64,000 bases of DNA from an uncultured Gemmatimonadales bacterium (GCA_963793305.1 CAWBZV010000014.1:64001-128000); one strand, 5' to 3'. Shown: positions 16,494-34,803, numbered from the stretch's first letter. Made by a program: numbers and translations. The notes: generated by a model not told the origin, from the letters alone.

Positions 16494-16938
16494 GCAGTAC
16501 GCGAGCACCGCGGACGCGCCACGGTTATTGCTGTTCGGCGTGGGCGGGCGACTCTGCGCCTGTGAGCTGGACGCTATTCGCGAAATCGTTCCCTATCGAC
16601 AAGCCACGCGACTGCCCGGCGCGCCGCCGTTCGTCACGGGCCTGATCAATCTGCGGGGATCGATTCTGACGGTGATGGACCTGGGTCTCAGACTCGGGGG
16701 ATCACCCATTGATCCCACGCGGGGATCGATTGTGCTGGCGGAGGCGGGACCGCGCGTCATTGGCCTCGGCGTCGATGAGCTCCGAGACGTGCAACGCGTT
16801 CCGCGAACGCAGATCGAACCGGCCGACGGCGAGATCGGCTCGGGGGTGGTGAGCGGCGTGCTCCAAGTGGGGGAGGACGTCGCGATGTTGCTCGACGTGC
16901 GGGCGATCATCAAGCAAATCTTCGGGGGAAATCTGTGA
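16453..16938 (+). CDS. cheW: CheW adaptor 1
   Basis: TRLPGAPPFVTGLINLRGSI, GLGVDE. Start is uncertain. Confidence 0.88.
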   Translation: MLASTESNPTTVDEQYASTADAPRLLLFGVGGRLCACELDAIREIVPYRQATRLPGAPPFVTGLINLRGSILTVMDLGLRLGGSPIDPTRGSIVLAEAGPRVIGLGVDELRDVQRVPRTQIEPADGEIGSGVVSGVLQVGEDVAMLLDVRAIIKQIFGGNL

Positions 16939-17297
16939 GTCACTCAGTGCTGATCTGCGATGACGCGATCTTCATGCGGACGATGGTCGGCGACATCCTG
17001 ACCCAAGCCGGATTCGAGGTCGTCGGCGAGGCCGAGACGGGCCTGCAGGCGGTCGAGAAGTACAAGCAGCTGCGACCCGACCTCGTCACGATGGACATCG
17101 TGATGCCGGACATGGGTGGGATCGACGCGGTCCGCGAGATCACGAAGTTCGACGCCAACGCCAAGATCCTCATGTGCAGCGCGATGGGCCAGCAAGCGCT
17201 CGTCGTCGAGGCGATCCAGGCGGGCGCGAAAGACTTCGTCGTCAAACCTTTCCAGCCCAGCCGCGTGCTGGAAGCCGTCCAACGCGTCCTCGGCTAG
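16935..17297 (+). CDS. cheY: CheY single-domain response regulator
   Basis: DDAIFMR, DLVTMDIVMP, CSAMGQQ, KDFVVKPF. Resembles Bacillus/Thermotoga-type CheY. Confidence 0.93.
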   Translation: MSHSVLICDDAIFMRTMVGDILTQAGFEVVGEAETGLQAVEKYKQLRPDLVTMDIVMPDMGGIDAVREITKFDANAKILMCSAMGQQALVVEAIQAGAKDFVVKPFQPSRVLEAVQRVLG

Positions 17298-17303
17298 CTC
17301 CTC

Positions 17304-19253
17304 GTGGACACGTCGCGGTACGCCGAGCTCTTTCTCACCGAGAGCCGTGAGCATTTATCAGCCATCAACCACGCGCTGCTCGAAATGGAGCAGAACGGGG
17401 GGACGGCCGATACCGTAGGCGCATTGTTCCGCGCCGTGCACACGGTCAAGGGCATGAGCGCGACGATGGGGTACCACGACGTTGCTGATCTGTCGCACGA
17501 GTTGGAGACCCTGCTCGAGCGGTGTCGCCGGGGCGAGCTCGCGGTGACATCCCCACTGATGGATGTGTTGTTCAAGGCGGCCGACACCCTCGAATCGGCC
17601 ATCGAGAACGCCGTCGCTGACGGGCCTCCAGTCAAGATCGCCAAGATTATCGAGCGGTTGAAATCGATCAGCACCGAGACCACCAACGGTGGCTCGGCTC
17701 CGCGTCGCACGTCCGGCAAGGCCGCGCGCCAGCGCGCCGCGAAGAAGGCTGCGACGCCCTTATCCGTGCCGACGGTCGGCGCCGATCCCGGCACGATCGT
17801 CAAGGTCACGCTCGTCCCCGATACGCCGCTGCCCGGCGTACGCGCGGTGATGGTACTGAACAAGATCCGATCGCTCGGCAAGGTCGTCGCTGTCGATCCC
17901 CCAGAAGACGACTTGGCACACGACGGGTTCAACGGTTGCTTTACGTGCACGATGATCGGGGCGGCGCTCGCGCCCGAGATCGAGGACGCGATTCGCTCCG
18001 TGGGCGACGTTGACACCGTTCAGATCACGGGCGCGCCCGTCCTGGCCGCGCGCCGCGGCACAACGGTCCTCCAAGCCGTGGGCAACGAAGAGACCGGGGT
18101 CAAGCAGCAGCGCCATGTGCGCATCGATCTGCGCCGGCTCGATTCTCTCATGAATCTGATCGGCGAGTTGGTCATCACGCGCGGACGGTTGTTCGAGATC
18201 GGGCGCTCTCTGGCGGATCCGGCGCTCGACGACTCGCTCGCTCAGGCCTCGCGGCTCATCGGCGACCTCCAGGACGAGATCATGACCTGCCGCATGGTCC
18301 CCGTCTGGCAGGTCTTTGACCGGTTCCCACGTCTCGTTCGCGATGCCGCCCGTACGCTCGGAAAGGACGTCACGCTGGAGATCGAGGGCAAAGAGATCGA
18401 GCTCGATCGCTCGATGCTCGACGAGATCGGCGATCCGATCGTGCACTTGCTGCGCAATGCCGTCGATCATGGCATCGAGACGCCCGACGAGCGGGCCAAG
18501 CAGGGCAAGCCGGTCATCGGCCGCCTGACGCTGAGCGCGGCGCGCGATCGCTCGAACGTCCTGATAAGAGTCTCGGACGATGGGCGGGGGATCGATCGCG
18601 GGAAGGTGCTGAGAAAAGCCCAAGAGACGGGACTGATCGACCCGGCGACTGTGGAGCTCACCGACGAAGAGCTGATGCGGCTCATCTCCAAACCGGGATT
18701 CAGCACGGCGGAAGCCGTGACCGAGATCTCCGGACGGGGTGTGGGTATCGACGCGGTGCAGAATCGCGTCCGAGCCCTTGGCGGATCCGTCGATATCAGA
18801 ACCGCGCCGGGGCGCGGGACGACCGTCACGGCCAGGTTGCCCCTCACGCTGGCGATCATGCGAGCCCTGCTCGCGCGCGTCGCCAATGAAGTGTATGCGA
18901 TTCCGATGGCGCACGTGCGCGAGACGATCTCGCTCGACGGCGCAAATGTGTCGACGCTGCAGGGGAAACCCGTGCTGCTGCTGCGCGAGGTCGTCATGCC
19001 ACTCGTACGCCTGCGTGACGTGGTTGGGCTGCCGGGACGAGTGATCGAAGCGGGCGAGGACGCCGAGCAAGCCATCGTCGTCGAGCTGGCTGATAAAGAA
19101 GTCGCGGTCGTTGTCGACCAACTCCCGGGTCAGCAGGAGATCGTGGTGAAGCAGTTCGATGGGGTGCGCGGTGGCCTGAATCTGTTCACCGGTGCGACGA
19201 TCCTCGGCGACGGCGCGCCCGCCTTGATCGTCGATGTGAGCAGTCTTTTCTGA
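17304..19253 (+). CDS. cheA: CheA chemosensory histidine kinase
   Basis: HPt FRAVHTVKG, P2-like domain, LDSLMNLIGEL, HLLRNAVDHG, DDGRG, GFST..GRGVG, C-terminal CheW domain. Confidence 0.96.
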   Translation: MDTSRYAELFLTESREHLSAINHALLEMEQNGGTADTVGALFRAVHTVKGMSATMGYHDVADLSHELETLLERCRRGELAVTSPLMDVLFKAADTLESAIENAVADGPPVKIAKIIERLKSISTETTNGGSAPRRTSGKAARQRAAKKAATPLSVPTVGADPGTIVKVTLVPDTPLPGVRAVMVLNKIRSLGKVVAVDPPEDDLAHDGFNGCFTCTMIGAALAPEIEDAIRSVGDVDTVQITGAPVLAARRGTTVLQAVGNEETGVKQQRHVRIDLRRLDSLMNLIGELVITRGRLFEIGRSLADPALDDSLAQASRLIGDLQDEIMTCRMVPVWQVFDRFPRLVRDAARTLGKDVTLEIEGKEIELDRSMLDEIGDPIVHLLRNAVDHGIETPDERAKQGKPVIGRLTLSAARDRSNVLIRVSDDGRGIDRGKVLRKAQETGLIDPATVELTDEELMRLISKPGFSTAEAVTEISGRGVGIDAVQNRVRALGGSVDIRTAPGRGTTVTARLPLTLAIMRALLARVANEVYAIPMAHVRETISLDGANVSTLQGKPVLLLREVVMPLVRLRDVVGLPGRVIEAGEDAEQAIVVELADKEVAVVVDQLPGQQEIVVKQFDGVRGGLNLFTGATILGDGAPALIVDVSSLF

Positions 19254-19262
19254 GGCCCTGAA

Positions 19263-19883
19263 ATGGAAGACATTCGCTCGTTGAAGGCGATTCAACTCGA
19301 CGCGTTGCGCGAAGTCGCGAACATCGGCGCCGGCCATGCGGCCACCGCCCTGTCGCAGATGACCGGCAACACGATCATGATCAGCGTGCCGACGATCAAT
19401 ATCGCGCGGCTCGAGGACGTGCCACCGCAGATCTCCGGCCCGGAAGAGCCGGTGGCCGCGGTGCTCATGAACATGCTCGGCGACCTCACCGGTCGCACGT
19501 TGTTGGTCTTTCCCCGACCAACGGCGCTCCGGCTGTCCGACCTGATGCTCAATCGACCCGGGAACAACGGCGGCGATCTCGGGGAGTTGGAGCAATCGGC
19601 GATTAAAGAGTGCGGCAACATCCTGAGCGGCGCGTACATGAACGCCCTGAGCGATTTTATGGGCCTCATGCTGCTGCCGTCGCCGCCCAGCCTGGCCGTG
19701 GACATGTCCAGTGCGGTGCTGACGACGGCGTATCTGCAGTTCGGAACCGATCGCGACTACGTGTTCTGCGTCGAGAGCGAATTCCACATGCAGGACTTCA
19801 ACGAACGGCTGCGCGGGTTCTTCCTCCTCCTGCCGGACGTGGCCTCGCTGCATGCCATTCTGCGCGCCGTCAAGGTCGCGTAG
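19263..19883 (+). CDS. cheC: CheC phosphatase
   Basis: Two ExxN motifs: DALREVANIGAG and SAIKECGNIL. Confidence 0.92.
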   Translation: MEDIRSLKAIQLDALREVANIGAGHAATALSQMTGNTIMISVPTINIARLEDVPPQISGPEEPVAAVLMNMLGDLTGRTLLVFPRPTALRLSDLMLNRPGNNGGDLGELEQSAIKECGNILSGAYMNALSDFMGLMLLPSPPSLAVDMSSAVLTTAYLQFGTDRDYVFCVESEFHMQDFNERLRGFFLLLPDVASLHAILRAVKVA

Positions 19884-19891
19884 GCGCGGGT

Positions 19892-22585
19892 ATGGACGTG
19901 GGCGCGCCCCCACTGATGTCCGAGCGGGACCGCGAGGTCCTGCGCTCGTTCGCGCGCCGCATTGATCCCTCGGACGCCGGGGCCCACAACAACCTCGGCG
20001 TTCTCTACTATCACAAAGGCTTGCACGAGGAGGCCGTCGAGGCCTTCACGCGCGCCCTCGAGCTCGACGGGAAAATGCAGGTTGCCCAGCGCAATCTGGA
20101 GATCGCGTACTTCTCGACCGGATACTACGAGCGCCGGGTCGGCGAGCTCCGCGAGCGCCTGCGCGTCACGCCCGCGGACCGCGAGGCGCGGTGGGAGCTG
20201 GGGCGCGCGTATGCGCTGCTCGGCCGCTCGAGCGAGGCGGTCAACGAATTCAACGAGTTGCTGCGCTACCATCCTGACGATCTCGGGGCAGTCGTCCAAC
20301 TCGGACTGGCCGAGAAAGCCTCGGGCGACCTCGAAACGGCGCAACAGTGGTTTGAACGGGCTCGGGACCTCGATCCGGCGAGCTCGGTCATCCATTTCTA
20401 CGTCGGCGAGGTCCTCTACAACCGCGGGCTGAACGACGAAGCCCTGGCGGCGCTCAACAAGGCCATCGAGCGGAATCCCGATAACCCGGACGCCCACTAT
20501 TTGATGGGCTTCGTGCTCGGCGACATGGGCCGACACGACGAGGCGCGCGAGGCGACGAAGCGGGCCATTCGCTTGAACCCGACGCTGTCACGGGCCCAGG
20601 CGAATCTGACACTGGACGGCGGTCCCCGCCGCATCTCGGCGCCGATGGCGGTCGCCGAAGAGGGTCAGCTCGCGCACTATAATTTGGGCTTGGCGTTCCG
20701 GCAGAAGGGGTACTATGTCGAGGCGCTGCGAGAGTACCAGCTGGCGCTCGACCGCGGCGAGGACGCGCCGCTCGTTCAGCAGGCGATGGCGGAAGTCCAC
20801 CTGCTGCGCAAGGACGTCGCGGCGGCGGTCGCCACCTACGACCAGCTGCTGAACCTCCAGCCCGAGAGCCCGAAGCTGTGGAACGAGCGCGGCGTCGCGC
20901 TCCATCAGCACGGGAAGTACACCGAGGCGGCCGAGTGCTATCAAAAAGCGCTCGACGCGGATCCGCGCTACGCGCTGGCCGCGAACAACCTCGGCGTCGC
21001 CCGGTTCCACGGTGGCGAGAACGAGGGGGCCGTCACGGCGTTCGAGACCGCGCTCGACATCGCCCCCACGTTCGTCAAAGCGCGCCTGAATTTCGCGCTG
21101 CTGCTAATGAAGGGGAAGCGCCTGCAGCAGAGTCTCGAAGCCTACCGTCAGGTGCTCCTCCACGCGCCCGAGAACGCCGTCGCCTGGAACGGCGTGGGCC
21201 TGGTGCTCACCGAGTTGCGCAAGTTCGAGGACGCGCGCAATGCCTTTGCGCGGGCGACGCAAAGCCGGCCGAATTACGCCGAGGCGCACTATAACCTGAG
21301 CTTTGCGCTGTCCAATCTCGGCGACTTCGACAGTGCGCTGCGCGAGACGAAGCGGGCCCTGGAGCTCGATCCGTATTACGTGCCGCAGAAGTTCGAGCTG
21401 ACCATCGATCTCCAGTATGAGGATCCGGATCTCTCGATCGTTCCGGATTTGGGGGGAGCACGACAGACCTCGGCACCCATTGAAGAGTTCGCGTTCGATG
21501 CCACCGTGTTGGATTCGCTGTTCACGGAGCTGACGCCACCGGCCGCTGCATTGGCGATGGCCACCGAGGCGCCGTTGGCGAACCCTTACGCGATGGCGGC
21601 CGACTATCTGTCGAAGGGTCTCTATGATAGGGCCACGGCCGAGGTGAGCCGGGCCTTGCTGAGAGGGGGAGATCGGGCCGACGGCATGGCGCTGCTCGGC
21701 GATGTCTTCGTGCATCAAGGACTGCATGGCGAAGCGCTGGAGCGTTACCGGGACGCACGCCGGGTGCAGGGTGTGCATTTGCGGGCCATGATGGGCGAGG
21801 TCAAAGCGCTCCTCGCCTTAGGCCGGACCAAAGATGCCCGACCGGTTGCCGAAGACCTGCTCGGAGCGGCGCCCGAAGATGTCGATACGCTTCTCCTGGC
21901 GGCGACGGCCAGAGCAGCGACCGGAGATCTGGACGCCGCGCTCGCCGCGCTGGCCCTCGCCAGACGGGCCGCCCCGCAACGAGCCGACGTCGCGCAGAAA
22001 ATCGGCGACGTGCGAAAAGTCGCCGGAGACCGAAGCGGCGCCAGAGCGTCGTACTATGAGGCGCTGGCACTCGACGGAGACCTGGCGGTCGTCCGGTTCG
22101 AGCTGGCGAGGTTGCTCGTGGGCGACGGCCATGAGACCGACGCCGAGGCCGAGCTGCTGGCGGCGTTGGACGCGGTGCCGACCTATGTCGACGCCTCGCT
22201 GGAGCTGGCGCAGCTCTGGCGTCGGACGGGGAAAAAGGAAGCCGCCATGCGGGTCGTCATCGAGTTGTTGGAACGCGATATGACGCTGACGCCGGCGCTC
22301 CTGGCGTTGGGCGAGCTCTTGTTCGAGCTGGGGCGACGAAAGGACGCGGCGTTGGCGTTCGCGCGGTTGCGGCGCATGGAACCCGCGCACCCGGCCGCGC
22401 TCTACTACGAGGGGGCGTTGTTCGCCGAGCAGCACCGATTCCGGGAAGCCATCGAGCGCTGGGAGAAAGTCGTGGAGATCGAACCGGATGGCCCGTACGG
22501 CCGGCGCGCGCGTCGCGACGGGCGCACCGCCGCGGACCTGGCCAAGATCTTCACCAACGGCGCGCGCGCCAACGGGAGGCATTAG
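19892..22585 (+). CDS. Large cytoplasmic multi-TPR protein (~900 aa)
   Basis: Many TPRs (AHNNLGVLYY, AHYLMGFVL, AHYNLGLAF, AWNGVG). No signal peptide seen. Start is ATG 19892 or 19916. Confidence 0.88.
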   Translation: MDVGAPPLMSERDREVLRSFARRIDPSDAGAHNNLGVLYYHKGLHEEAVEAFTRALELDGKMQVAQRNLEIAYFSTGYYERRVGELRERLRVTPADREARWELGRAYALLGRSSEAVNEFNELLRYHPDDLGAVVQLGLAEKASGDLETAQQWFERARDLDPASSVIHFYVGEVLYNRGLNDEALAALNKAIERNPDNPDAHYLMGFVLGDMGRHDEAREATKRAIRLNPTLSRAQANLTLDGGPRRISAPMAVAEEGQLAHYNLGLAFRQKGYYVEALREYQLALDRGEDAPLVQQAMAEVHLLRKDVAAAVATYDQLLNLQPESPKLWNERGVALHQHGKYTEAAECYQKALDADPRYALAANNLGVARFHGGENEGAVTAFETALDIAPTFVKARLNFALLLMKGKRLQQSLEAYRQVLLHAPENAVAWNGVGLVLTELRKFEDARNAFARATQSRPNYAEAHYNLSFALSNLGDFDSALRETKRALELDPYYVPQKFELTIDLQYEDPDLSIVPDLGGARQTSAPIEEFAFDATVLDSLFTELTPPAAALAMATEAPLANPYAMAADYLSKGLYDRATAEVSRALLRGGDRADGMALLGDVFVHQGLHGEALERYRDARRVQGVHLRAMMGEVKALLALGRTKDARPVAEDLLGAAPEDVDTLLLAATARAATGDLDAALAALALARRAAPQRADVAQKIGDVRKVAGDRSGARASYYEALALDGDLAVVRFELARLLVGDGHETDAEAELLAALDAVPTYVDASLELAQLWRRTGKKEAAMRVVIELLERDMTLTPALLALGELLFELGRRKDAALAFARLRRMEPAHPAALYYEGALFAEQHRFREAIERWEKVVEIEPDGPYGRRARRDGRTAADLAKIFTNGARANGRH

Positions 22586-22588
22586 GCC

Positions 22589-23741
22589 ATGGCGATCGAA
22601 GGACCGCTGCGCGAGCTGAGCATACACGATGTCTTCCAGCTGCTGGATCTGAGCCGGAAGACCGGCGCGTTGCGCGTCACGTCGGTGCTCCGCGACAACG
22701 AAGGCACGGTGCTGTTCGATCGCGGCCGCGTCATCTCGGCCAGCATCCGGTCGAGCCCGAACCCGCTCGGCGCGGTCCTCGTCCGGGCCGGCCGCATCAC
22801 CGAGCGCGATCTGGAGCGCGCCCGGAAGGTGCAGCAGGAGAATGGCGCGACGAAGCGATTGGGCGAGATCCTGCTCCAGATCGGAGCGATCTCGGCCCGC
22901 GAGCTGGAGCGCCAGGTGCGTTTACAGATCGAGACGGTCGTGTTCGAGCTCATGTCGTGGCGCGAAGGGTTCTTCTCGTTCGAGGAGCGCGATGTCGGCC
23001 ATGCGCAACTCGAGGCGGCGGTCCACGTGTCGACCGAGTCGCTCCTCATGGAGGGGGCGCGCCGCATCGACGAGTGGAGCCGGATCGCCGACAAGGTGCC
23101 GCACCTGGGCGTGATCCCGATCCTCGCGGCGGTGAACGAGTTGCACGCGACGCAGCTCGATCTGCTGCCGAACGAGTGGGAAGTGTTGGCGATCATCGAC
23201 GGTGCGAACGACCTGCACGGCATCGCGGCCGCGCTCGGCCGGTCCGAGTTCGAACGTCGCGAAAGTCGTGTACGGCTTGCTCACGACCGGCGTGGTGGAG
23301 CTGCGCGGCGGCAGGGGCACGCCCGTCGCGGTGCAGGCGACCGCGGCGCCCGACCCGGCGCGGTACCTGACGCTCGCGGAGGCGGCGCTGGCCGACGGGC
23401 TGTACGACGAAGCGCTCAATTCGGCGCGCTCGGCGATCGCCGCCGATCCGCGCGCGCCCGCGGCGCGCCTCATGGCGGCGCGAGCCTTGCGAAAGCTCAA
23501 GCGGCATGCGGAAGCGGCCGACGAGTTGCGTCGGGCGGCCGAGGCCGACCCGAAGCATCCGCATATCCAGCTGGAGCTCGGACTGGCGGCGCTCTGTCAG
23601 GGCGATTTCCGCGGCGCCGTGCACATCTGGCGGCAATACCTGGAGGCCGCCCCCGAGGAGGCCGAAGCGACCGAAGTCCGCGAAGCCGTCGATTCGGCTG
23701 CGCGACTCGATCGATTTGTCGAGAGCTATGTCGGTGTCTGA
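22589..23741 (+). CDS. DUF4388/PatA-N-like + MshEN-like + wHTH-like + TPR protein (apparent +1 frameshift at ~23253)
   Basis: GPLRELSIHDVFQLLDLSRKTGAL, WREGFFSF, ESLLMEGARRIDE. Removing one A restores SEFDVAKVVYGL, which matches paralog 27958 (SEFDVGKALFAL), and joins ORF 23202..23741. Confidence 0.82.
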
Positions 23742-24645
23742 CGATATCCGCCGTTGGAGCGATGAGCTGGCGCGCAGTCCCGCCAGCATGGTCTTCTTGC
23801 CTTTGGGCGAGGCCCTGCGCACGCGCGGGCAGATCGACGTCGCGCTGCGCGTCGCGTTGCGCGGGCTCGAGCGCCATCCGTACGACGCCGACGCGCACGA
23901 CCTGCTCGCGCGCATCTACGCCGATCGCGGCGAGACCGAGCGGGCGCTCGACGAATGGGATGCGGCCATCCGCTGTACGCCCGGGCACGCTGGCGCCCTC
24001 AAGGGCATGGGCTTCGTCTGCTTCAACCAGGGCCGCATCGTGGACGCCGAGCGGTATCTCGCCGAGGCAGCAGCCGCGAGTCCGGAAGACGACGGGCTCG
24101 CGATGGCGCTCGAGCGCGTCCGCGCTGCGGCTACTCCGCCTGACCCTGAGCCCGTGGCTGCACCGGCGCCCGAGCCGGAACCCGAACCCACACCTGTCGC
24201 CAACGGCAACGGCCACGGCCCGACGAATGGCGACGTGCGGGCCGAGCCAACGCTCGCCGAAGGCGACGCGCACTTTGGCGATCCACGACAGCTCTTTGCT
24301 GATCTCATTGGCGTGGCGGACCAAGCCGCGCTGCTGCTGGATGAGGACGGCCTGGTGATGGCGGGCCAGTACGTGGTCTCCGATGGCATGGACGTCGGAG
24401 CCGAAGTGGGCGCTGCCCTGAGCGGCATCAGCGACGAGGCGAGGCGCGCCATGCGGCATCTCCCGCTCGGCGACTGGCGCACGATCATCTTCGAGACGCC
24501 CGCCGCAACCGTCGTGATGACACCGGCCCCGCAGGATGGCCTGGTGCTCGTCGCGGCCGCGCCCGAAGTGCCGTCAGGCCTCGTGCGTCGCGCCCTCGAG
24601 AGCGTATCCCAGCGCGCGAAACGCTGGATGGAGCAGCTCTCATGA
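23728..24645 (+). CDS. TPR + Pro/Glu linker + Roadblock/LC7 domain fusion
   Basis: N-terminal TPRs (FLPLGEALR, AHDLLARIY), PEPEPEP linker, and C-terminal ALLLDEDGLVMAG...VPSGLVRR Roadblock pattern. Confidence 0.78.
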   Translation: MSVSDDIRRWSDELARSPASMVFLPLGEALRTRGQIDVALRVALRGLERHPYDADAHDLLARIYADRGETERALDEWDAAIRCTPGHAGALKGMGFVCFNQGRIVDAERYLAEAAAASPEDDGLAMALERVRAAATPPDPEPVAAPAPEPEPEPTPVANGNGHGPTNGDVRAEPTLAEGDAHFGDPRQLFADLIGVADQAALLLDEDGLVMAGQYVVSDGMDVGAEVGAALSGISDEARRAMRHLPLGDWRTIIFETPAATVVMTPAPQDGLVLVAAAPEVPSGLVRRALESVSQRAKRWMEQLS

Positions 24646-24998
24646 GCTCGAGCTCGCCGTTCATTCCCTCGCTCGAACACCTGACACGCCAGCGCGGCGT
24701 GCTCGGCAGCCTCGTGGTGAGCGAGACCGATGGCATCGTCATCGATGCCGTGGTACAACCGAGCGTCAAGGCACCAGTCGTCGCGGCGCTCGCCGCGTCG
24801 CTCTATCGGCGCGCCCGGCAGTCGGCGCACGCCGCGGGACTCGGGGGTGTGAGGTACTTGGAGCTGGTGGCCGACGGCGGCCGGCTCTGTATGGCCGGGC
24901 GCGATGATCTCGTGGTCGTCCTGGTGACCGATACCCGCGTCGGGGTGGGACTGCTGCGCGTCGAGTTACTTCGAACCGCCGCGGAGTTGCCCGAGTGA
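24642..24998 (+). CDS. Roadblock/LC7 domain protein (MglB/MglC-like)
   Basis: 118 aa: GVLGSLVVSETDGIVI, AALAASL, VGVGLLRVEL. Confidence 0.82.
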   Translation: MSSSSPFIPSLEHLTRQRGVLGSLVVSETDGIVIDAVVQPSVKAPVVAALAASLYRRARQSAHAAGLGGVRYLELVADGGRLCMAGRDDLVVVLVTDTRVGVGLLRVELLRTAAELPE

Positions 24999-25465
24999 GC
25001 CTCGCCGTCGTCGAGCGCTGGGTCGAGGCGCCGCTCAGGCGATTCGTCGAGGACGCGCAAGCCGTGCTCGCGCTCTTGCTGACGCCCAGTGGTCAGGTGC
25101 TGGCCCAGCACGGGTTCACGCGCGCGGTCGACGTCATGTCGGCGTGCGCGCTGGCGGCGGCCATCCATGCATCGTCGACCGAGCTCGGACGACAGTTGCA
25201 GGGCCGGCCCTTCGCGGGCCTGCATCACGCGGGCCGCCGGCGGCAGCTCTTCCTGGCGCGCGCGGATACCCCGCGCGGGCCGTACGTGTTCTTGACCGTG
25301 TTCGACCAGGCGAGCTCGCTCGGCCTGGTGCAACTCTACTACGATGAGTTCACGGCGCGCTTGGGCGATGCCGCGCCACCGAAATCGAATGATACGACCG
25401 AGATCCTGGCGGAGAACTTCGAGTCGGAGTTGGATCGCAACCTGAAGCTCTTGTTTAGCCGATAA
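24995..25465 (+). CDS. mglB: MglB-like Roadblock protein (putative GAP)
   Basis: LLLTPSGQVLAQHG, VFDQASSLGLV, acidic C-terminal helix. Immediately upstream of mglA. Confidence 0.8.
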   Translation: MSLAVVERWVEAPLRRFVEDAQAVLALLLTPSGQVLAQHGFTRAVDVMSACALAAAIHASSTELGRQLQGRPFAGLHHAGRRRQLFLARADTPRGPYVFLTVFDQASSLGLVQLYYDEFTARLGDAAPPKSNDTTEILAENFESELDRNLKLLFSR

Positions 25466-26070
25466 TGTCGCTCGTCAACTATTCCACCCGCGAGATCACG
25501 TGCAAGATCGTCTACTACGGCCCAGGGCGGTCGGGGAAGACGTTGAATTTGCACTACATCTACGGGCAGGTGCCGAGCGATCGCAAAGGCAAGATGGTCT
25601 CGTTGGCGACCCAAACCGACCGCACCCTGTTCTTCGATTTCCTGCCATTGGACCTGGGCTCGATCTCCGGGTTCACCACCAAGATCCAGCTCTATACGGT
25701 CCCTGGGCAGATCTACTATCAGACCACCCGCCGGCTCGTGCTCCAGGGCGCCGATGGCGTCGTCTTCGTCGCCGACAGCCAGAGTCGGCAACTGGAAGAG
25801 AACATCGAGAGCTTGCAGGACCTGCACGCGAATCTGGAAGAACAAGGGGTCGACCCCCGCGGCGTTCCGCTGGTGCTGCAGTACAACAAGCAGGACTTGC
25901 CGCGCGATCTGATTCTGGACGAAGCCACGCTCGATGACGCGCTGAACTTCAGGGGCGTTCCCCATTTTGCCGCCGATGCGCTGCATGGCGCCGGCGTATT
26001 CGAAACCCTCCGTGGCATCTCGGAGCTGGTGCTCAAGCGATTGAGCTCGCCCAACGGGGCGCGACGCTGA
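25465..26070 (+). CDS. mglA: MglA small Ras-like GTPase
   Basis: REITCKIVYYGPGRSGKT, DRTLFFDFLP, YTVPGQ, GADGVVFVADS, YNKQD. Confidence 0.95.
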   Translation: MSLVNYSTREITCKIVYYGPGRSGKTLNLHYIYGQVPSDRKGKMVSLATQTDRTLFFDFLPLDLGSISGFTTKIQLYTVPGQIYYQTTRRLVLQGADGVVFVADSQSRQLEENIESLQDLHANLEEQGVDPRGVPLVLQYNKQDLPRDLILDEATLDDALNFRGVPHFAADALHGAGVFETLRGISELVLKRLSSPNGARR

Positions 26071-26071
26071 A

Positions 26072-27956
26072 ATGGCGAACAATCGCTATCGGTTCGACAA
26101 CTTCATCGTCGGCTCGGCCAATCGCTTAGCCGTGGCGGCCGCGCGCGCGGTCGCCGAGTCGCCCGGGAGTGCCTACAACCCCCTGTTCATCTATGCCGGA
26201 TCAGGGCTCGGCAAGACGCATCTCATGGGCGCGATCGCCCATCACGCCGCGTCAGTCCAACCGGCACTTAAACTCGATTACCTGTCGCTCGACGAGTTCG
26301 TGCGCCAGTTGCATGCGGCGGTATCGATAGGACAGGCCGAGAATTTTCGGCAACGATATCAGCATGTCGACCTGCTGCTCCTCGATGACGTGCAGTTTTT
26401 GACCGGACGCCGAGAGACGCAGAGCGAGATGCTGCGCCTGTTCAACGCCCTGCAGGGCGCCGGCCGCCAGATCGTCATGACGAGCGACCGGCCGCCGTCC
26501 GACATCGCCGATGTCGACGAACGGCTGCTCAACCGGCTGGCGGGTGGCCTCATTGTCGACATCGGCGCGCCCGACTACGAGACGCGGGTCGCGATCCTCA
26601 GGAGCAAATGCGAGGAGCGCGAGGTGCGATTCGCGACCGGCGTCATCGAAGCGCTGGCCAAGATGACGTTCGGGAATGTCCGTGAGCTGCAAGGCGCGCT
26701 CAATCGCCTGATCGCCCATCAGACGCTGGAGGAAGGCGATCTCACCGCCGACGATGTCGCGATGCTGCTCGGTGGCACGACCGCGACCCGGAGCACCGTC
26801 GAACGCGATAACAGCGGCGAATACCTGGCCTTTCTCACTGGCGTGCAGCGCGTCGTCTCCGAGAACGCGTGGCGGGTCCGGCTCGGCGAAGGCATCGCGT
26901 ACTGGCGCGGCGAAGGCTACCGCACGGGTCCACTCGATCGGCTCTTCGAGGGGCGTGTCGAGCCGGACGTTCGAGCGCGTCCTCACGGACTTCTCGACAT
27001 TGATCGACCGGTTGCGGGCACTGGAGGCCGAAGCGACCACCGTCGACGCATCGCTCGGCGGCGCTGATGTGTTCCGCGATCCGGATCGCCTGTCTCAGGC
27101 CGAGGCGCTGGTGGTGAAGGCGCAAGCGGGCGAGGTCGCACCGGACGGGCCGTCGCCCGCGTTTACGCGTGACGAGTACGAGGTCGGCGCCGCGAACCAG
27201 CTCGCGGTGCGCGCGGCCGATGCCATCATCGCCGATCCCGGGCGGCGCTACAACCCCTACTTCATCCATGGGCCGAGTGGCGTCGGCAAGACCCACTTGA
27301 TGCACGCGATCGGGAATGGGATTGCGGGATCGACGTGCCTCGGGGCGCAGCAGTTCGTGGACAGCCTGATCGCTGCGCTGCAAGAAGGCACGGTCGAACG
27401 CTGGCGTGCCCGGTTCCGCGCTGCCGGCGCATTGCTCATCGATGACGTGCACTTTCTCGCCGGCAAAGAGCGGACGCAAGAAGAATTGTTTCACGTGTTC
27501 AACGACATGTACGACCAAGGCAAACAAGTCGTGCTGTCGAGCGACCGTCCGCCGAAAGAATTGGAGGACCTGGAAGAGCGTTTGCGATCCCGGTTCGAGG
27601 GCGGATTGGTCGTCGCCATTCAGCCGCCCGATCGTGGCCTCCGTGAGAAGTTGTACGCTCGTTTCCTGGCGAGGGCCGATATCGAGCCGGAGCCGGCGCT
27701 CGTCATGTATCTCGCGGACCGCCCCGTGGCGAGCGTGCGAGAGATTGCCGGAACGATTCAGCGGCTCATGGCGACGGCCGAAGTCGCCGGTGCGGCGGTG
27801 TCCCTCGATCTCGCGCAAAACGAGCTCGATGGCCCGGGCTCCGCGCGCGTGCCGGCGCCGAAGGAGATGGCGGTCGACGCGTTCTTCCTCGATGACGAGA
27901 AAGTCATCTGGGACTGGCCGGAGATGAGCGGCCGCGTCATCGAGGAGTGGCGCTAA
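26072..27956 (+). CDS. Tandem DnaA/Hda-type AAA+ protein lacking DnaA domains I and IV (apparent +1 frameshift at ~26970)
   Basis: Module 1: YNPLFIYAGSGLGKT, LLLLDD, SDRPP, NRLAGG, NVRELQGAL. Module 2: YNPYFIHGPSGVGKT, LLIDD, SDRPP, SRFEGG, SVREIAG. Removing one T restores EPDVERVL and fuses the two ORFs (~627 aa). Confidence 0.82.
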
Positions 27957-27957
27957 G

Positions 27958-29574
27958 ATGGCCATCAAAGGCAGCCTCAAAGAGGCCAGTCTGCCGGACG
28001 TGCTCCAGCTGCTTGCCATGGGCAAGAAGACGGGGTGCCTCAGCGTCACGCATCGGAACAACTTCGGCTACATCTACTTCGAGAAAGGGCGCATTGCGTA
28101 TGCGTCCATTGTCAATCGGCGCGACCGCCTCGGCGATCTGCTGATCAAGGCCGGTTTGATCACCCGTGACCAGGTGGACGAAGCGATCGGATCCCAGCCC
28201 GGCTACAAAGACAAGCGTCTCGGCGACATTCTCGTGGCCCAGGGCCTGGTCTCGCGCGACGAGCTGCACGCGCAGATACGGGTGCAGATTCAGGAAGCCG
28301 TCTATTTCCTGTTCACGTGGTCGCAAGGCTCGTTCAACTTCGAGGCGGACATCCGCCCCGAAGAGCTGGACTTTGTGGTGTCGATCAACCCCGAATCCCT
28401 GCTCCTGGAAGGCGCGCGGCGGGTCGACGAGTGGGGATTGATCAGCAAGAAGATTCCGAGCTTCGATCTCGTGTTCGAGATCGATCGCGATCGACTCAAG
28501 CAGAGTGACGTCACGCTCACGCACCAGCAGGAAGTGCTGCTCGATTCCATCGACGGCAAGCACGACGTGACCGCGCTGGTCGATGCGAGCGGACTCAGTG
28601 AATTCGACGTTGGCAAGGCGTTGTTCGCGCTCCTGTCGGCGGGCTTCCTGCATCGCGTGGGGACCAGCAAGGCCGAGCCGATGGTCTCCGACGCGCGCGT
28701 CGAAGAGCACCGGAACCTCGGCATCGCGTTCTACAAAACCGGCATGTTCGAAGAGGCCGTCCGCGAGTTTCGGCGGGTCTCCGAGTGTCGGCCCGCCGAT
28801 CAGGGCGCGCCGTTCTATCTCGGTCTGGTCCTGATGCGCCAGGGGAAATGGCCGGCGGCCGCCGACGTCTACCGCGGCGCCGCGCAGACCCTTGGGGCCA
28901 AGCCGGCGGTGTTTTGCAACCTGGCGTACATCCTGGAGCGTCTCGGTGAGTACGACGAGGCGCGCGCGGCACTCGACGAGGCCGTCAAACGCGGCGCGGG
29001 GAATTTGCCGCAAGTGCGCACCTCGTACGGCGCCCTGGCGCTCCGTGGCGGAGATATCGCGGAGGCGGACGCGGTCCTCTCTGCCGCTCGCCCGCTGTGG
29101 GGCAAGAGGCCACCACCACCCGCGTGGTTCCACTACGCCGGATTGGCGGCGGCGTTGGCGGGAGATCTCGACCGGGCCACGGAGCTCCTGACCGAAGGAA
29201 CGGCGCTGCACCCGCATGCCGCGGCGCTGTTCAATAATCTGGCCGCGGTCGCGGAACGACGCGGGGGCTGGGCCGACGCCGCGATGTTCATTGAGCGCGG
29301 CACGGCCGAGGATCCGGCGTTGCCGCAGCTGCACAAGAACTCAGGCGACTATGCGTACCGCTCGGGACAGTATGACGAAGCGCTCGACGCGTATCAGCGT
29401 GCGACGCGACTCAACCCCGCGCTGGGCGACGATGTCTTCTTCAAGATCGGCAATATTCGCTATCGACGACGCGAGACGGCCGAGGCCGTGAAGTGTTGGG
29501 AACGCGCGCTGGAGCTCGAGCCGGCGAATGCGATCATACGGAGTAATCTGGACGCGGTCCGGCGGGCGGGATGA
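27958..29574 (+). CDS. DUF4388/PatA-N-like + MshEN + wHTH-like + TPR protein
   Basis: GSLKEASLPDVLQLLAMGKKTGCL, tandem RLGxxLxxxGLI/V motifs, ESLLLEGARRVDE, C-terminal TPRs. Paralog of 22589. Confidence 0.85.
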   Translation: MAIKGSLKEASLPDVLQLLAMGKKTGCLSVTHRNNFGYIYFEKGRIAYASIVNRRDRLGDLLIKAGLITRDQVDEAIGSQPGYKDKRLGDILVAQGLVSRDELHAQIRVQIQEAVYFLFTWSQGSFNFEADIRPEELDFVVSINPESLLLEGARRVDEWGLISKKIPSFDLVFEIDRDRLKQSDVTLTHQQEVLLDSIDGKHDVTALVDASGLSEFDVGKALFALLSAGFLHRVGTSKAEPMVSDARVEEHRNLGIAFYKTGMFEEAVREFRRVSECRPADQGAPFYLGLVLMRQGKWPAAADVYRGAAQTLGAKPAVFCNLAYILERLGEYDEARAALDEAVKRGAGNLPQVRTSYGALALRGGDIAEADAVLSAARPLWGKRPPPPAWFHYAGLAAALAGDLDRATELLTEGTALHPHAAALFNNLAAVAERRGGWADAAMFIERGTAEDPALPQLHKNSGDYAYRSGQYDEALDAYQRATRLNPALGDDVFFKIGNIRYRRRETAEAVKCWERALELEPANAIIRSNLDAVRRAG

Positions 29575-30374
29575 GCGACGAAGGCGAATTTCAGCAGCTG
29601 CTGTCGAAGATCGCGACCGAGCGCCAGTTCCACTGCCAGCACTACAAAGAGAAGTGCTTGCGGCGGCGCATCGGCGTCCGTCTGCGCGCGCGCGGCCTGC
29701 ACAGCTACTCGGATTACGCGCGGCTCCTGGACGGGGACGCGCGGGAGTACGAGAAGCTGCTCGATACGCTGACCATCAACGTCACCAAGCTCTTTCGGAA
29801 TTGGGAGACGTGGGAGGCGATGGCGGCCCACGTGGTTCCGGCGATCTGGGGGGAGCCTCGCAATGTGCACATCTGGAGCGCCGGGTGCTCATCGGGCGAA
29901 GAGGCGTATTCGCTGGCCGTCCTCATGCATCGCCACGCCAGCGCGATGCACGAATCACATCGGTTGAATCGCGTGGATATTCTGGGGACCGACATCGACC
30001 GCGAGAGTTTGACGGCCGCCGCGAAGGGGCTGTTCGATGACGATGCCTTCACCGATACGCCGGCCGAGATCAGAACCGCCTATTTCAGTCCGACGCAGCC
30101 GGCGACCGTGCGAGCCGACGCGAAACAGCTCGTCCGGTTTGAAAAGCGAGACCTGATCCGCGGCGACGCGCCCAAGGGCCTGCACCTGATCGCGTGCCGC
30201 AACGTGATCATCTATTTCGATCGCGTCACGCAGGAGCAGTTGTTCGTCCGGTTCCACGACGCGCTCGAGCCCGGCGGCTTTCTCGTGCTGGGCAAAGTCG
30301 AAACCCTGCTCGGCGCCACGCGCTCGTTGTTCGAGCCAGTGGACGCGCGCGAGCGCATCTTCCGCCGCCGGTGA
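29571..30374 (+). CDS. cheR: CheR methyltransferase
   Basis: LTINVTKLFRN, IWSAGCSSGEEAYS, CRNVIIYFD. Confidence 0.94.
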   Translation: MSDEGEFQQLLSKIATERQFHCQHYKEKCLRRRIGVRLRARGLHSYSDYARLLDGDAREYEKLLDTLTINVTKLFRNWETWEAMAAHVVPAIWGEPRNVHIWSAGCSSGEEAYSLAVLMHRHASAMHESHRLNRVDILGTDIDRESLTAAAKGLFDDDAFTDTPAEIRTAYFSPTQPATVRADAKQLVRFEKRDLIRGDAPKGLHLIACRNVIIYFDRVTQEQLFVRFHDALEPGGFLVLGKVETLLGATRSLFEPVDARERIFRRR

Positions 30375-30853
30375 ACGAGCACATTCGCGTCAAGGTCGCC
30401 GACTACGCCGTGGCCCGCGGCGATGCGATCATCGCCACCATCGGCCTCGGGTCGTGCGTCGCGATCACGGTCTACGACAACACCGCGCGCGTCGGTGGAT
30501 TGGCGCACATCCTGTTGCCGACCGAAGGCATGTCGCGCGATACACACAATCGCGCCAAGTTCCCGGGCTCGGCCGTCCCGCTCCTGCTCGAGGAGATGCG
30601 GAAGCTCGGCGCGAAAGGGCCCTTTCAGGCCAAGCTCGTCGGTGGGTCGAGCATGTTCGCGTCCCTCTTGCCACAGGGCGGCGTGAATATGGGTGACCGC
30701 AATGTCGATGCGTGCCGGCGCGCGCTGGGTCAAGCACAGATCTCGTTGATCGCGCAGGACACCGGTGGCACGTACGGCCGCAGCGTGTTCCTGCACATCC
30801 GCGATGGTCGCGTCATCGTTCGCTCGCTGGCGCACGGCGAGAAGATATTGTGA
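30371..30853 (+). CDS. cheD: CheD deamidase
   Basis: TIGLGSCVAI, GGLAHILLP, AKLVGG, DTGGTYGR. Confidence 0.92.
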   Translation: MNEHIRVKVADYAVARGDAIIATIGLGSCVAITVYDNTARVGGLAHILLPTEGMSRDTHNRAKFPGSAVPLLLEEMRKLGAKGPFQAKLVGGSSMFASLLPQGGVNMGDRNVDACRRALGQAQISLIAQDTGGTYGRSVFLHIRDGRVIVRSLAHGEKIL

Positions 30854-31917
30854 GCAACGTGAAGAGCGTCCTCGTAGTCGATGACAGCGCGTTCATGAGA
30901 AAAGTGGTCAGCGAGCTCGTGTCCGCGTCCAACGAGTTTCGCGTCATCGGGACGGCGCGCAACGGCTATGACGCGCTGAAGCAGATTCACACGCTCGAGC
31001 CGGACATCGTCACGATGGACATCGAGATGCCGGAGCTCGATGGCATCCAAGCGCTCGGATATATCATGTCCGAGACGCCGCGGCCGGTCGTGATGCTGAG
31101 CGGGGCCGAGACCGACGACTCGCGCGACCACACCATTCGCGCGTTGGAGCTCGGCGCCGTTGACTTTGTGCGCAAACCGTCCGGTCCCGTGTCGCTCGAC
31201 TTGCCGACCGTACGGGAACAGTTGTTGGCCGCGTTGCGCGCCGCCGCGTGCGTCAATTTGCGCGGTGTCGATGTCCTCGCACGCCCACGACAGTCGGGCA
31301 CGTGGCGGGTACCCGAACGAACGGGCGGAGCGACGAGGGTGGTTGTCATTGCCGCATCGACCGGGGGGCCCCGAGCGCTGGCCGAGGTCATCCCAAATTT
31401 GACCCCCACGATCGATGCCGCCGTACTGGTCGTGCAGCACATGCCCGGTGGATTTACGGCGAGCCTTGCCCAGAGACTCAACGACATGAGCCCCCTCAGG
31501 GTCGTCGAGGCCAAGGACGGGGATCGAATTGTCCACAATCGTGTGTATTTAGCCCCGGGGGGGTATCACATGCGCGTAGCGATACGGGACGGGTTGCCTA
31601 CGCTCACGTTAGATACCGCCGCCCCGATTTGGGGGGTGCGACCGGCGGCTGACCCGTTGTTTCGGTCGGCGGCCCAGATTTTCGGGCCATCCGTGGTTGG
31701 CGTCGTCCTGACTGGCATGGGGCGCGACGGCGCCGAAGGGCTCCGGACGATCCGAGACGCCGGGGGGCAGGGCGTCGTCCAAGATCAGATGACCTCTACG
31801 ATCTACGGTATGCCCCAGGCGGCGCTGGTGACCGCTGGAGCGGACCGTGTGGCGTCGCTTGTCGACGTGGCGCCCGCGGTCGCTGATCTCCTGGCCGCAG
31901 GCGGACGGGCGTCGTGA
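30850..31917 (+). CDS. cheB: CheB methylesterase with receiver domain
   Basis: VVDDSAFMR, DIVTMDIEMP, ASTGGP, VQHMP, LTGMGRDG. Confidence 0.95.
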   Translation: MSNVKSVLVVDDSAFMRKVVSELVSASNEFRVIGTARNGYDALKQIHTLEPDIVTMDIEMPELDGIQALGYIMSETPRPVVMLSGAETDDSRDHTIRALELGAVDFVRKPSGPVSLDLPTVREQLLAALRAAACVNLRGVDVLARPRQSGTWRVPERTGGATRVVVIAASTGGPRALAEVIPNLTPTIDAAVLVVQHMPGGFTASLAQRLNDMSPLRVVEAKDGDRIVHNRVYLAPGGYHMRVAIRDGLPTLTLDTAAPIWGVRPAADPLFRSAAQIFGPSVVGVVLTGMGRDGAEGLRTIRDAGGQGVVQDQMTSTIYGMPQAALVTAGADRVASLVDVAPAVADLLAAGGRAS

Positions 31918-32417
31918 GCGCGACGCTGGTGCCGACGACCGCGTATCAGCTCGCCGATGCGCAAGGCGTGCGCGAAGCCGCACGCCGGCGCGTGGGCGTC
32001 GTCGACCTGCTCGTGTTTCGAGCCGGCGGCGAGCGATTCGCCGTGGGTCTGGCGGCGGTCGACGAGGTCATCGACACCGGAATCATCACGGCATTCCCCC
32101 AGAGTCCGACGACGATGCTCGGCGTGTCCGAGATCCGCGGCGCGCTCGTTCCCGTGTACACGCCCGGCCCGGCGCTCGGCGTGGACATCGTGGACCGCAA
32201 GAAGATCGTCGTGGCCCGTGGTCGCGATGGACGCCGCGTCGGTCTCGCGGTCGACGACGCCGAAGGCGTGATGGCGTTCGACTTCGAGACGCTGAATACG
32301 GCGGCGGCTCAGGGGATGCTGCTCGGGATATCTCCACGCGGGAGTCTCTTAGCTGTCGTCGATATCGAGGCGCTGGTCGCCGCGTGCACTACCGATCGGG
32401 TCGAGGAGACCTCATGA
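31914..32417 (+). CDS. cheW: CheW-like adaptor 2 (divergent)
   Basis: LLVFRAGGERFAV, MLGVSEIRG, VGLAVDD. Confidence 0.78.
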   Translation: MSATLVPTTAYQLADAQGVREAARRRVGVVDLLVFRAGGERFAVGLAAVDEVIDTGIITAFPQSPTTMLGVSEIRGALVPVYTPGPALGVDIVDRKKIVVARGRDGRRVGLAVDDAEGVMAFDFETLNTAAAQGMLLGISPRGSLLAVVDIEALVAACTTDRVEETS

Positions 32418-32881
32418 GCACCACCAACGGGCACGTTCAAATCGTCACGTTCCGCTTGGCAGGCGATCTGTTCGCCGCTGACATTCACGGCGTCGAGCGC
32501 GTGCTGCGTCGTCAGGAGACCACACCGGTGCCGAACGTACCGGATTGGATCACCGGCGTGATCGAGTATCAAAAGCGCGTGGTGCCGGTGATCGATCTCC
32601 GGGCGCGGTTCGAGATGGAAGTCGCCGAGGCGACGAACGAGACGCGCGTGTTGGTCTTTAACGCCGCGGATCAGTGGATCGCCGGCGTCGTGGATGCGGT
32701 CCTCGATGTGGCCGCCGTCGACAAGTCGGCCGTGCAGCCGCCGCCCGAGCTGTTTCGCGGGCTGGCGGGCGAGTACCTGAAAGGCATCGTGCGCCGCGAG
32801 AACAAGCTTGTCATGCTCCTCGACGTCACCAAGCTGTTGACCGCGACCGAGCGGTTGGCGCTGGAGCTGGTCGATGCCTGA
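32414..32881 (+). CDS. cheW: CheW adaptor 3
   Basis: IVTFRLAG, TPVPNVPDWITGVI, VPVIDLRARF. Confidence 0.88.
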   Translation: MSTTNGHVQIVTFRLAGDLFAADIHGVERVLRRQETTPVPNVPDWITGVIEYQKRVVPVIDLRARFEMEVAEATNETRVLVFNAADQWIAGVVDAVLDVAAVDKSAVQPPPELFRGLAGEYLKGIVRRENKLVMLLDVTKLLTATERLALELVDA

Positions 32882-33740
32882 CGAGTTGGTCGACCTGCGA
32901 ACCGCGTATCAGGCCATCGACGCGCGACTCGCCGGGCCGGAAGCACAGAACGGCGCTCGGGATCAGCTCAAGGGGGAGATCATCGCCCTCTATAAGCGCG
33001 TGGAGCAGCGCGTGACCGAGCTGTCCGCGCTCAAGGACGACATCAAGAAGCTCGTCGACAAGTGGAAGACGATGCAGCAGCAGGCCGCGCCCTCCGTCGC
33101 GCCGCAATTTACCGGCGAACGGCCGACGGTGCATGCGGACCACATCGGCGCCTCGACCTTTATTGAAAAAGGCTGGAGCCGGATTTCCCTGGGCGACTAC
33201 GAAGGGGCCGAGGCGGCGTTGACCAAGGCGCTCGAGCTCTCGCCGAACGATCCGCAATCGGAGTCACTGCTCGGCTGGGCGCAGATGCTGCAAGAGAAGT
33301 ACGACGACGCACTGTTGAACTTCCAACGCGTGCTGATGCGCCAGCCCTCGAACGCGCTCGCGCGCATCAACGTCGGCTACATCTGCCTCAAGAAGCGCAT
33401 CTTCGGCGAGGCCATCGAGCATTTGTCGAAGGCCATTCGGCTCGATAACGACAAAAAAGCCACGCTCTACGCGCACTTCTATCTCGGCCTCGTGTATCTC
33501 GAGCGCGAGATGTACGAGGACGCGCAGACGTTCTTCGAGAAGACGCTCGCACTCGGCCCCAACCTCATCGAGGCCTACTACGAGCTCGGCCGCGCGCGTT
33601 GGTTCGGCGGGCTGGCGGAGCACGCGCTCGAGGCGTGGCGCGCGGGACACGCGGCGAACAAGTTCAATCCATGGGGGAAGCGCTGCGCCGAGGTGCTGGA
33701 GGCGGTCGCCGCCGGCGGCGAACCCCCGCACGCTCCATAG
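32874..33740 (+). CDS. Coiled-coil + TPR protein
   Basis: N-terminal coiled coil followed by about five TPRs (AHFYLGLVYL, AYYELGRA). Confidence 0.82.
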   Translation: MPDELVDLRTAYQAIDARLAGPEAQNGARDQLKGEIIALYKRVEQRVTELSALKDDIKKLVDKWKTMQQQAAPSVAPQFTGERPTVHADHIGASTFIEKGWSRISLGDYEGAEAALTKALELSPNDPQSESLLGWAQMLQEKYDDALLNFQRVLMRQPSNALARINVGYICLKKRIFGEAIEHLSKAIRLDNDKKATLYAHFYLGLVYLEREMYEDAQTFFEKTLALGPNLIEAYYELGRARWFGGLAEHALEAWRAGHAANKFNPWGKRCAEVLEAVAAGGEPPHAP

Positions 33741-34747: not shown

Positions 34748-34768
34748 TGACACTGGGATGAACTTCTA

Positions 34769-34797
34769 TTGACACTGTTTTCGACTGGTTCTACTCT
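34769..34797 (+). promoter_or_regulatory. Near-consensus sigma70 promoter
   Basis: TTGACA (34769-34774)-N17-TACTCT (34792-34797), 6 nt before ATG 34804. Confidence 0.75.
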
Positions 34798-34803
34798 TTT
34801 AAA

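Follow-up and report, generated by a model that had tools for sequence, protein, structure and literature searches.

Why should the ATPase fold of the replication initiator DnaA stand in a string of polarity and chemosensory genes, directly behind a gene for a Ras-like GTPase? What is known of DnaA domain III concerns the control of replication, in DnaA and Hda. The question is raised by a gene at 26072..27956 in a 64,000-nucleotide stretch of DNA from an uncultured Gemmatimonadales bacterium (GCA_963793305.1, CAWBZV010000014.1; hereafter the window, contig C14:64001-128000 of a 5.7 Mb assembly that is 92% complete). By the names of its homologs, the genome belongs to Gemmatimonadaceae. The sequence-only reading of this window had taken the gene for a tandem of two DnaA domain III modules placed directly after mglA, and mglA does end at 26070, with the tandem gene starting at 26072. 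All window features described below lie on the plus strand.

In the assembly the gene is split over two frames, and its ORFs, 26072-27067 and 26754-27956, carry one Bac_DnaA domain apiece (PF00308 matches at 26078-26560 and 27159-27614). Longer relatives of the second half were listed as 120 proteins of 626-713 aa, the best 120 of 2224 hits. The closest among the matches listed, P0001 (627 aa, 98% identical to the window), aligns through residues 1-300 with 26072-26971 and through residues 301-627 with 26973-27953; since it covers both ORFs with one position skipped, there is exactly one surplus base. This base is a T at 26970..26971, an assembly error. It is missing in the same-genus genomes G340 and G197, where the 627-aa frame is found, and in contigs of the sequencing runs X1, X2 and X3 (X1 is maybe the source sample and not independent); run X4 has no such gap at this place. 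The full-length single frame is present in four of the five same-genus genomes and is interrupted by a contig end in the fifth. Because P0001, the same-genus genomes and the run contigs all lack the T, the fusion is real, and the gene is one ORF for one 627-aa protein. The one-base repair at 26966-26972 on which the fusion had been made to depend is thus borne out, and the idea that homologs might be two separate genes finds no example among the 120 listed (best of 2224), all of which are single proteins.

Other breaks occur in the same assembly. A paralogous PATAN-TPR gene further upstream (22589-23741) is split at 23253 by one surplus base that is absent in contigs of X1, X2 and X4, and this break is likewise an assembly error. 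The lspA, rsmH and murE-like ORFs also appear frameshifted in the ORF list, so the assembly is indel-prone. One database protein, P0247, a read-through from tail to PATAN, resembles a frameshifted fragment and was set aside.

An HMM scan found both PF00308 matches, in agreement with two DnaA domain III modules. Domain I is missing (PF11638 has no match in P0001, and the Bac_DnaA match begins at residue 3), as is domain IV (no match of PF08299, Bac_DnaA_C, at the locus or in P0001). AAA+ module 1 spans residues 3-233 (26078..26770; PF00308, model and alignment) and contains K48, D105/D106, D139-R140, R151, the arginine finger R155 and R204; module 2 spans residues 361-586 (27153..27830; PF00308 and alignment), with K406, D457/D458, D491-R492, R503, R507 and R556. 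Both modules thus have the residues of Walker A and B, the Asp-Arg pair of sensor I, the two arginines of box VII and the arginine of sensor II; the sequence-only reading had noticed Walker A/B, SDRPP, an arginine-finger region and a sensor II-like VRE motif in each. That reading joined the modules by a single helical linker; in the monomer model, the linker falls into two parts, helix A, which is short and unfolded there (about residues 249-265, 26816..26866), and a helical domain folded with confidence (residues 266-351, 26867..27125). Helix A, defined by model and alignment, is acidic and amphipathic, with F254 present in 47/47 rows, and is kept in the ATPase-less micro-proteins described below. 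The folded linker domain gave no Pfam match, and a search of the ESM Atlas with residues 245-362 no usable one, a result that speaks for neither absence nor novelty; the domain is missing from the micro forms and from some intermediates. The C-terminal tail (residues 603-627, 27879..27953), present as previously described, has near-invariant residues E609, K610, W615, R621 and E624 and is predicted from a complex model and the alignment to dock on TPRs.

The AlphaFold monomer model, built from a 117-row alignment, has a mean pLDDT of 91.3 and a pTM of 0.59, so that its arrangement of the domains is tentative. Its pLDDT falls below 50 at residues 236-260 and is 60-68 over the tail, as one would expect if these motifs take up their fold on binding a partner. 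A Foldseek search with the whole model returned DnaA domain-III structures as top matches, with p97/Rix7-type entries also among the rows shown, and was uninformative on the linker domain.

The gene lies in a string of signalling genes and not next to dnaN, as had been noted. Upstream are cheW, cheY-like, cheA-like and cheC genes, a gene for a large TPR protein and the paralogous PATAN-TPR gene (together 16453..23741; the cheY and cheA labels come from translated sequence, not from the family scan), then three Roadblock/LC7 genes found by family scan (TPR-Roadblock, Roadblock and MglB-like, 23734..25465) and the cluster mglA for a Ras-like GTPase (25465..26070, family scan). Directly downstream is a PATAN/DUF4388-MshEN-TPR gene (27958..29574; family scan, profiles and complex model) with an MshEN-type insert at about 28126-28272 and a predicted TPR groove at about 28804-29349. 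It is followed by cheR-, cheD- and cheB-like genes, two cheW genes and a TPR protein gene (29571..33740; the cheR, cheD, cheB and second cheW labels come from translated sequence). The insert scores 48.5 against a cut-off of 38 with NF053729 over partner residues 57-105 and has two 24-residue RLGxxL motifs; its binding of c-di-GMP is a prediction. In the available part of PMC12943098, MshEN is described as two such 24-residue motifs with a short linker. The chemosensory string (16453-33740) thus holds three cheW genes, cheC and cheD, and no chemoreceptor gene is among its labelled genes. It is flanked by ileS-dksA-lspA-rluA (11442-16493) and by the division genes rsmH-ftsL-ftsI (33599-41256), a position kept even in the most reduced clusters seen in relatives.

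We compared 50 loci (own genome included, one genome counted twice); they come from related genomes, and the synteny and co-occurrence counts are not independent. The usual string reads cheW-cheY-cheA-cheC, large TPR, PATAN-TPR, three Roadblocks and mglA, then the tandem gene, PATAN-MshEN-TPR, cheR-cheD-cheB-cheW-cheW and TPR. A PATAN-TPR gene is directly downstream in 50/50 loci, and in 20/20 loci with a micro form; the distance from stop to start is -1 to +1 nt in 45/50. The cluster mglA is the usual upstream neighbour (49/50 loci, 15/20 micro loci) and is dispensable: six genomes from three lineages (G070, G072, G313, G343, G050 and G114) keep the family gene and gave no match for the cluster mglA, all six holding another mglA-like gene. 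In lineage g95 the locus consists of mglA, the micro-gene and PATAN-TPR, without che genes, and is the smallest cluster seen, while lineage g10 has che genes, the micro-gene and PATAN-TPR, without the cluster mglA. Common to both are the micro-gene and the PATAN-TPR gene. The tie to mglA and che genes that had been proposed therefore holds as the usual arrangement and fails as an obligatory one. What never varies in these loci is the PATAN-TPR gene downstream, a partner that the sequence-only reading had not singled out. Neither the cluster mglA nor the che genes can be obligatory partners, as each is absent from some loci in which the family gene is present. A like role for the TPR protein at 32874 was rejected as well, with no match in 5/5 tested genomes keeping the family gene (the search had no positive control, and the same query matched other loci elsewhere).

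The second mglA-like gene of the relatives has a peculiarity of its own. In four genomes of different families its match contains one internal TGA (G104:C4:16185-16772, G114:C2:44734-45312, G095:C10:220495-221073 and G047:C96:3894-4472). Recoding may explain it, or else an early stop that the four share, with a homologous read-through tail behind it. Wuichet and Sogaard-Andersen report PATAN genes in the vicinity of some Group 1 mglA genes (PMC4316618, in the part available), and their supplement gives Gemmatimonas aurantiaca GAU_1409 as 'PATAN>MglA>-PATAN>', the gene between being unnamed; the word 'DnaA' is absent from the main text of that paper as available.

We next surveyed 150 sampled genomes of the phylum, 105 of them in the order. 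A family member is present in 101/105 genomes of the order: the own family has 21 tandem, 1 single-module and 6 micro forms and 3 genomes with none, the sister family is represented in 71/72 genomes (67 by score, 4 from fetched loci) and a third family in 2/2. Other families of the class have it in 5/28 genomes, other classes in 0/17 at the same threshold. The four order genomes without a family member also have no PATAN-TPR match. A family-profile search of 33 partner-less phylum genomes found 0/33, a weak negative because the search recovered just 7/10 known positives. Among the best 80 of at least 599 stretches, 12/12 family loci have Gemmatimonadota titles, a scope too narrow to show absence from other phyla.

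The most informative members are the shortest. One-module relatives are found in G047, G082 and G104, and about 85 database proteins near 390 aa belong to the one-module class. In G112, G050, G045, G034, G072 and G070 the gene is a 60-73-aa ORF in which helix 249-265 is joined to tail 603-627. A profile of these micro-proteins (60-80 aa, an acidic helix and the C-terminal tail, without Pfam or NCBIfam match) matched 25/251 family genomes, namely 20 micro-genes in five genera and 5 tails of long proteins; among 1.84 billion representatives it had 81 matches, of which 42 are helix-plus-tail proteins of 53-116 aa. Other deletion forms keep module 1, helix and tail, or helix, module 2 and tail, or both modules without the linker domain (some of these database proteins are possibly fragments). 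In a tree of the partner, a quick tree of 49 chosen rows with a midpoint root and the MshEN columns kept, the micro forms require two origins and the single forms three, all nested among tandem forms; they therefore look derived by loss. Both ATPase modules are dispensable: they were lost at least twice, gene position and tail persisting. This adds a new point, namely that the indispensable part of the protein is the short helix with the predicted docking tail and not the ATPases.

The partner changes as well. Its MshEN insert and both ATPases are lost together in 18/20 micro loci, a joint loss that is one event on the partner tree and hence was not counted as support. The MshEN-less clade comprises four genera (L061-L065, L077, L081, L083-L092 and L094), and genus g18 has lost the ATPases and kept the insert. 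The source of one 70-aa micro-protein (cluster P0213) gives it the name 'DNA-binding ferritin-like protein', but it has no Pfam match; this is likely a mislabel.

How the tail could act is suggested by a complex model. As a stand-in from another genus, we modelled the micro-protein of G070 with its own 438-aa partner, which is 55% identical to the window's partner. The complex scored 0.78, against 0.22 for the best of the unrelated-protein controls; the mark applied to such scores is attained by 116/157 solved and 2/215 mismatched pairs, counts that hold roughly for our own alignments. Runs share at least 94% of contacts, and partner pLDDT is at least 71. The predicted interface lays tail residues 34-59 of the micro-protein on TPR residues 232-414, with the invariant tryptophan on G070 partner residues 339-343, and takes in conserved asparagines (N321, N426, N427 and N461 in the window's partner). 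Against the prediction, groove residues are conserved only marginally better than the remaining TPR region (0.65 vs 0.58, p = 0.06). TPR-peptide complexes are a common type among solved structures, and the score may therefore partly reflect likeness to these. The model thus predicts that the neighbouring PATAN-MshEN-TPR protein receives the tail in its TPR groove. Helix A is predicted to be a second docking motif; it is not among the confident contacts of this complex, which is uninformative either way.

Taken together, we favour, with a probability of roughly 0.55, an adaptor built on two motifs, to which ATP-switch modules are an optional addition and which likely steers type IV pili. As some relatives keep only the helix and the predicted docking tail, a polarity or motility adaptor is likely rather than a replication factor. 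Such a protein would dock its tail in the TPR groove of the PATAN-MshEN-TPR neighbour and helix A on a second partner. If the analogy with DnaA holds, the modules would assemble head to tail through the arginine fingers upon binding ATP; the many tails then displayed would gather the PATAN protein in clusters, for instance at a pole, and ATP hydrolysis would release it. Module 1 would then act as the switch proper and module 2 would in part be a structural rung, and the micro-protein would be the unregulated tether that remains once the switch is lost. The suggestion of an initiator fold put to new use, as an ATPase or scaffold in signalling, fits the fixed place among Che, MglA and PATAN genes, the lack of domains I and IV and the separate clades of the modules. 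On the other side, the ATP-driven oligomers are putative, the pTM of 0.59 does not fix how the domains are arranged, and module 2 keeps ssDNA-binding positions in about two-thirds of rows, which a pure protein adaptor would not need.

The setting would be an MglA/chemosensory pathway likely controlling type IV pili. A flagellar output as the rule was ruled out, FliG being found in just 14/29 cluster-bearing genomes. PilM is found in 28/29 of these and also in 27/33 genomes without the cluster; it does not discriminate and speaks against the pilus part of the adaptor reading to that extent. The own genome, 92% complete, has 12 MCP matches elsewhere, PilM and no FliG_C match. According to the available part of 10.1101/2021.06.11.447907, PATAN domains bind PilB1 and PilC in Synechocystis, and in Myxococcus MglA works via the TPR protein SgmX on PilB (PMC11580455, available part). 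Because of these roles in cyanobacteria and Myxococcus, the output of the pathway is, by analogy, probably type IV pili.

The conserved positions in module 2 are the starting point of the alternative that fares best, unlikely as we consider it to be: a tether engaging nucleic acid, whose module 2 would let it form a DnaA-like filament on ssDNA or the nucleoid; this would hold the PATAN-TPR complex in place or capture DNA that pili bring in. We counted residues over 46 tandem sequences, omitting L043 for its frameshift, L014 for containing N, L037 for having a single module and L045 because it repeats L011. In module 1, the Walker A lysine is conserved in 46/46, Walker B in 46 and 45/46, the sensor I Asp-Arg in 43 and 44/46, the box-VII arginines in 42 and 42 and sensor II in 43; in module 2, Walker A is conserved in 44/46, Walker B in 45 and 41 and the arginines in 44 and 43, and sensor I (15/46) and sensor II (34/46) are weaker. 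I190, K222 and T225 of Bacillus subtilis DnaA are required for ssDNA binding (bioRxiv 2022.03.18.484894, available part). They are matched in module 2 of the window's protein by I433, K465 and T468, and I, K and T are kept at these positions in 32, 31 and 30 of the 46 rows, which together with arginine fingers kept in 42-43 of 46 speaks for a filament on ssDNA. In canonical DnaA, however, position I190 is hydrophobic in 22/22 sequences and position K222 is K or R in 22/22, so that conservation in module 2 is relaxed at these sites. Module 1 has H, R and T or M there, with His first in 33/46 rows (His81 in the window's protein at the position of the ssDNA-binding Ile). Of the two modules, the second decays or disappears first, and the micro forms do without either.

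Somewhat less probable still is a coupler of the Hda-like or DnaA-capping kind, whose modules would join DnaA in an assembly by way of the arginine finger and make initiation depend on the polarity state that MglA reports. The modules are 44% and 40% identical to domain III of the genome's own DnaA, DnaA structures are the top Foldseek matches, and in many loci the cluster is just upstream of the rsmH-ftsL-ftsI division genes. P0001 passes TIGR00362 (527.6 against a cut-off of 343.9), reaching it only by the sum of two domain-III hits, which likely explains the database label 'DnaA'. The canonical dnaA was located elsewhere, at C3:386969-388510 (minus strand), adjoining a dnaN-like ORF (label read from translation), and the domain-IV matches of the genome are on contig C3 only. 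In quick trees, module 1 forms one clade (98-100 SH-aLRT) and module 2 another (99), both outside 69 domain-IV-bearing DnaAs, the support on the DnaA side being just 82-92 (five long-branch modules were dropped; 47/80 loci with a domain-IV motif and one Walker A were used); E. coli Hda groups with neither module save by a weak long-branch join. The phylogeny against DnaA and Hda thus gives each module its own clade. The Hda/HdaA models stay below their cut-offs (TIGR03420, 165.2 vs 194.8; NF005982, 69.5 vs 268; NF051883, 56.6 vs 300). A clamp-binding motif of the Hda type is found in 0/120 listed homologs (best of 2224), with 4 scattered matches of the clamp type in the 50-row loci alignment, and no DnaA box lies within 2 kb of the tandem gene. 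Both modules were lost at least twice while tail and neighbour remained, and the family was not found in 33 phylum genomes with DnaA-type replication, in a search that recovered 7/10 positives. The proposal of a DnaA modulator linking polarity to the cell cycle hence gains little support, and the tandem protein is a conserved DnaA domain III derivative that is a member of neither DnaA nor Hda.

The genome also has a second dnaA with domains III and IV only, of about 336 aa (G000:C3:469445-470386, plus strand; G310 L122; G197 L123), intact in two same-genus genomes and frameshifted in the present assembly. It is flanked by five DnaA-box matches with at most 1 mismatch (background, 0.044 per kb), of which G310 and G197 also have the downstream group conserved. 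At the canonical dnaA, at a distance of about 80 kb, there are only two such matches. An origin beside the truncated dnaA paralog is possible.

A protein that directly regulates MglA or acts as its effector, reading MglA-GTP for example via helix A and relaying it to the PATAN protein, would account for the mglA gene directly upstream in nearly all of the 50 loci and in most micro loci, and for a smallest cluster of mglA, micro-gene and PATAN-TPR. It is compatible with the adaptor if helix A binds MglA. We nevertheless consider it rather improbable as a reading of its own, since helix A is kept in the six genomes without a match to the cluster-type mglA, another mglA-like gene being present there. 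A remodelling ATPase, whose hydrolysis would dismantle or load a complex of PATAN-TPR, Roadblock and MglA proteins with the tail as substrate grip, is very unlikely. The catalytic set of module 1 is complete in most relatives, and the tail is predicted to bind the neighbour, but such a remodeller would serve no purpose once its motor is gone, and a motor-less micro-gene persists at the same place in five genera; the modules, too, are of the initiator type. AAA+ modules of this type are known as switches and filaments, not as pore translocases. That the locus holds two separate genes or decaying dnaA fragments, as the two ORFs of the assembly, a further frameshifted member (G125, L043) and a module 2 degenerate in several relatives might be taken to mean, is refuted for the family by the absence of the T from contigs of three runs and two close genomes, by the single-protein homologs (626-713 aa, best 120 of 2224) and by the standing of each module as its own clade across the class.

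Beyond the adaptor itself, we raise a more speculative thought, that an ATP-polymerising filament derived from DnaA, without a DNA job and displaying docking motifs, represents a new class of bacterial signalling switch. Equally tentative is its possible role in clustering a c-di-GMP-sensing PATAN-TPR effector, by which a Ras-like GTPase and a chemosensory pathway would be joined to the pilus motor. In the open literature, subscription papers being outside the scope, we found no description of the tandem protein. With a conserved, class-wide use of DnaA domain III in a polarity/chemosensory string, the reach of the initiator-clade ATPases would extend to signalling. The functional core is indicated by the ATPase-less 60-80-aa form, which also offers a small reagent for binding tests, and the series of two, one and no modules around a constant core of 60 residues would, if true, amount to a natural dissection of the way in which signalling recruited an initiator. 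Databases often call the tandem protein a 'chromosomal replication initiator', a label that can lead predictions of origins and counts of dnaA astray; as Gemmatimonadota are an abundant soil phylum, the mislabelling has practical weight.

With DnaA (PF00308; PDB 8BV3, 8BTG, 2Z4R, 2HCB and 3R8F) each module shares the domain-III fold and the nucleotide-site residues, the match to 8BV3 having 46% identity and an rmsd of 1.9 A over 233 columns. Unlike DnaA, the tandem protein has two modules per chain, no domains I and IV, a new linker domain, two short motifs and a signalling gene neighbourhood. Like Hda/HdaA, it is a DnaA-domain-III homolog with an arginine finger and without a DNA-binding domain. 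Hda has one module and a clamp-binding motif; unlike it, the present protein has two modules (one or none in some relatives), with Walker A and B DnaA-like. AAA+ adaptors of the IstB/DnaC type, initiator-clade relatives that serve as ATP-switched adaptors, give weak profile matches to the tandem protein, far below the DnaA scores, and no transposase or helicase gene of an IstB/DnaC context is nearby. The invariant partner carries DUF4388, as do the PATAN/DUF4388 output domains PatA, PixE and PixG; it differs from these in having an MshEN-type insert and TPRs in place of a receiver domain. A close parallel for the pathway as a whole is the pilus-polarity network that MglA, SgmX, FrzS and SopA form in Myxococcus xanthus, which likewise combines MglA and Roadblock proteins, a chemosensory pathway and partner-binding TPR scaffolds, and for which the available part of PMC11580455 names no DnaA-type part. 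Unlike that network, the system described here is one gene string, with PATAN-MshEN-TPR proteins and a DnaA-derived protein.
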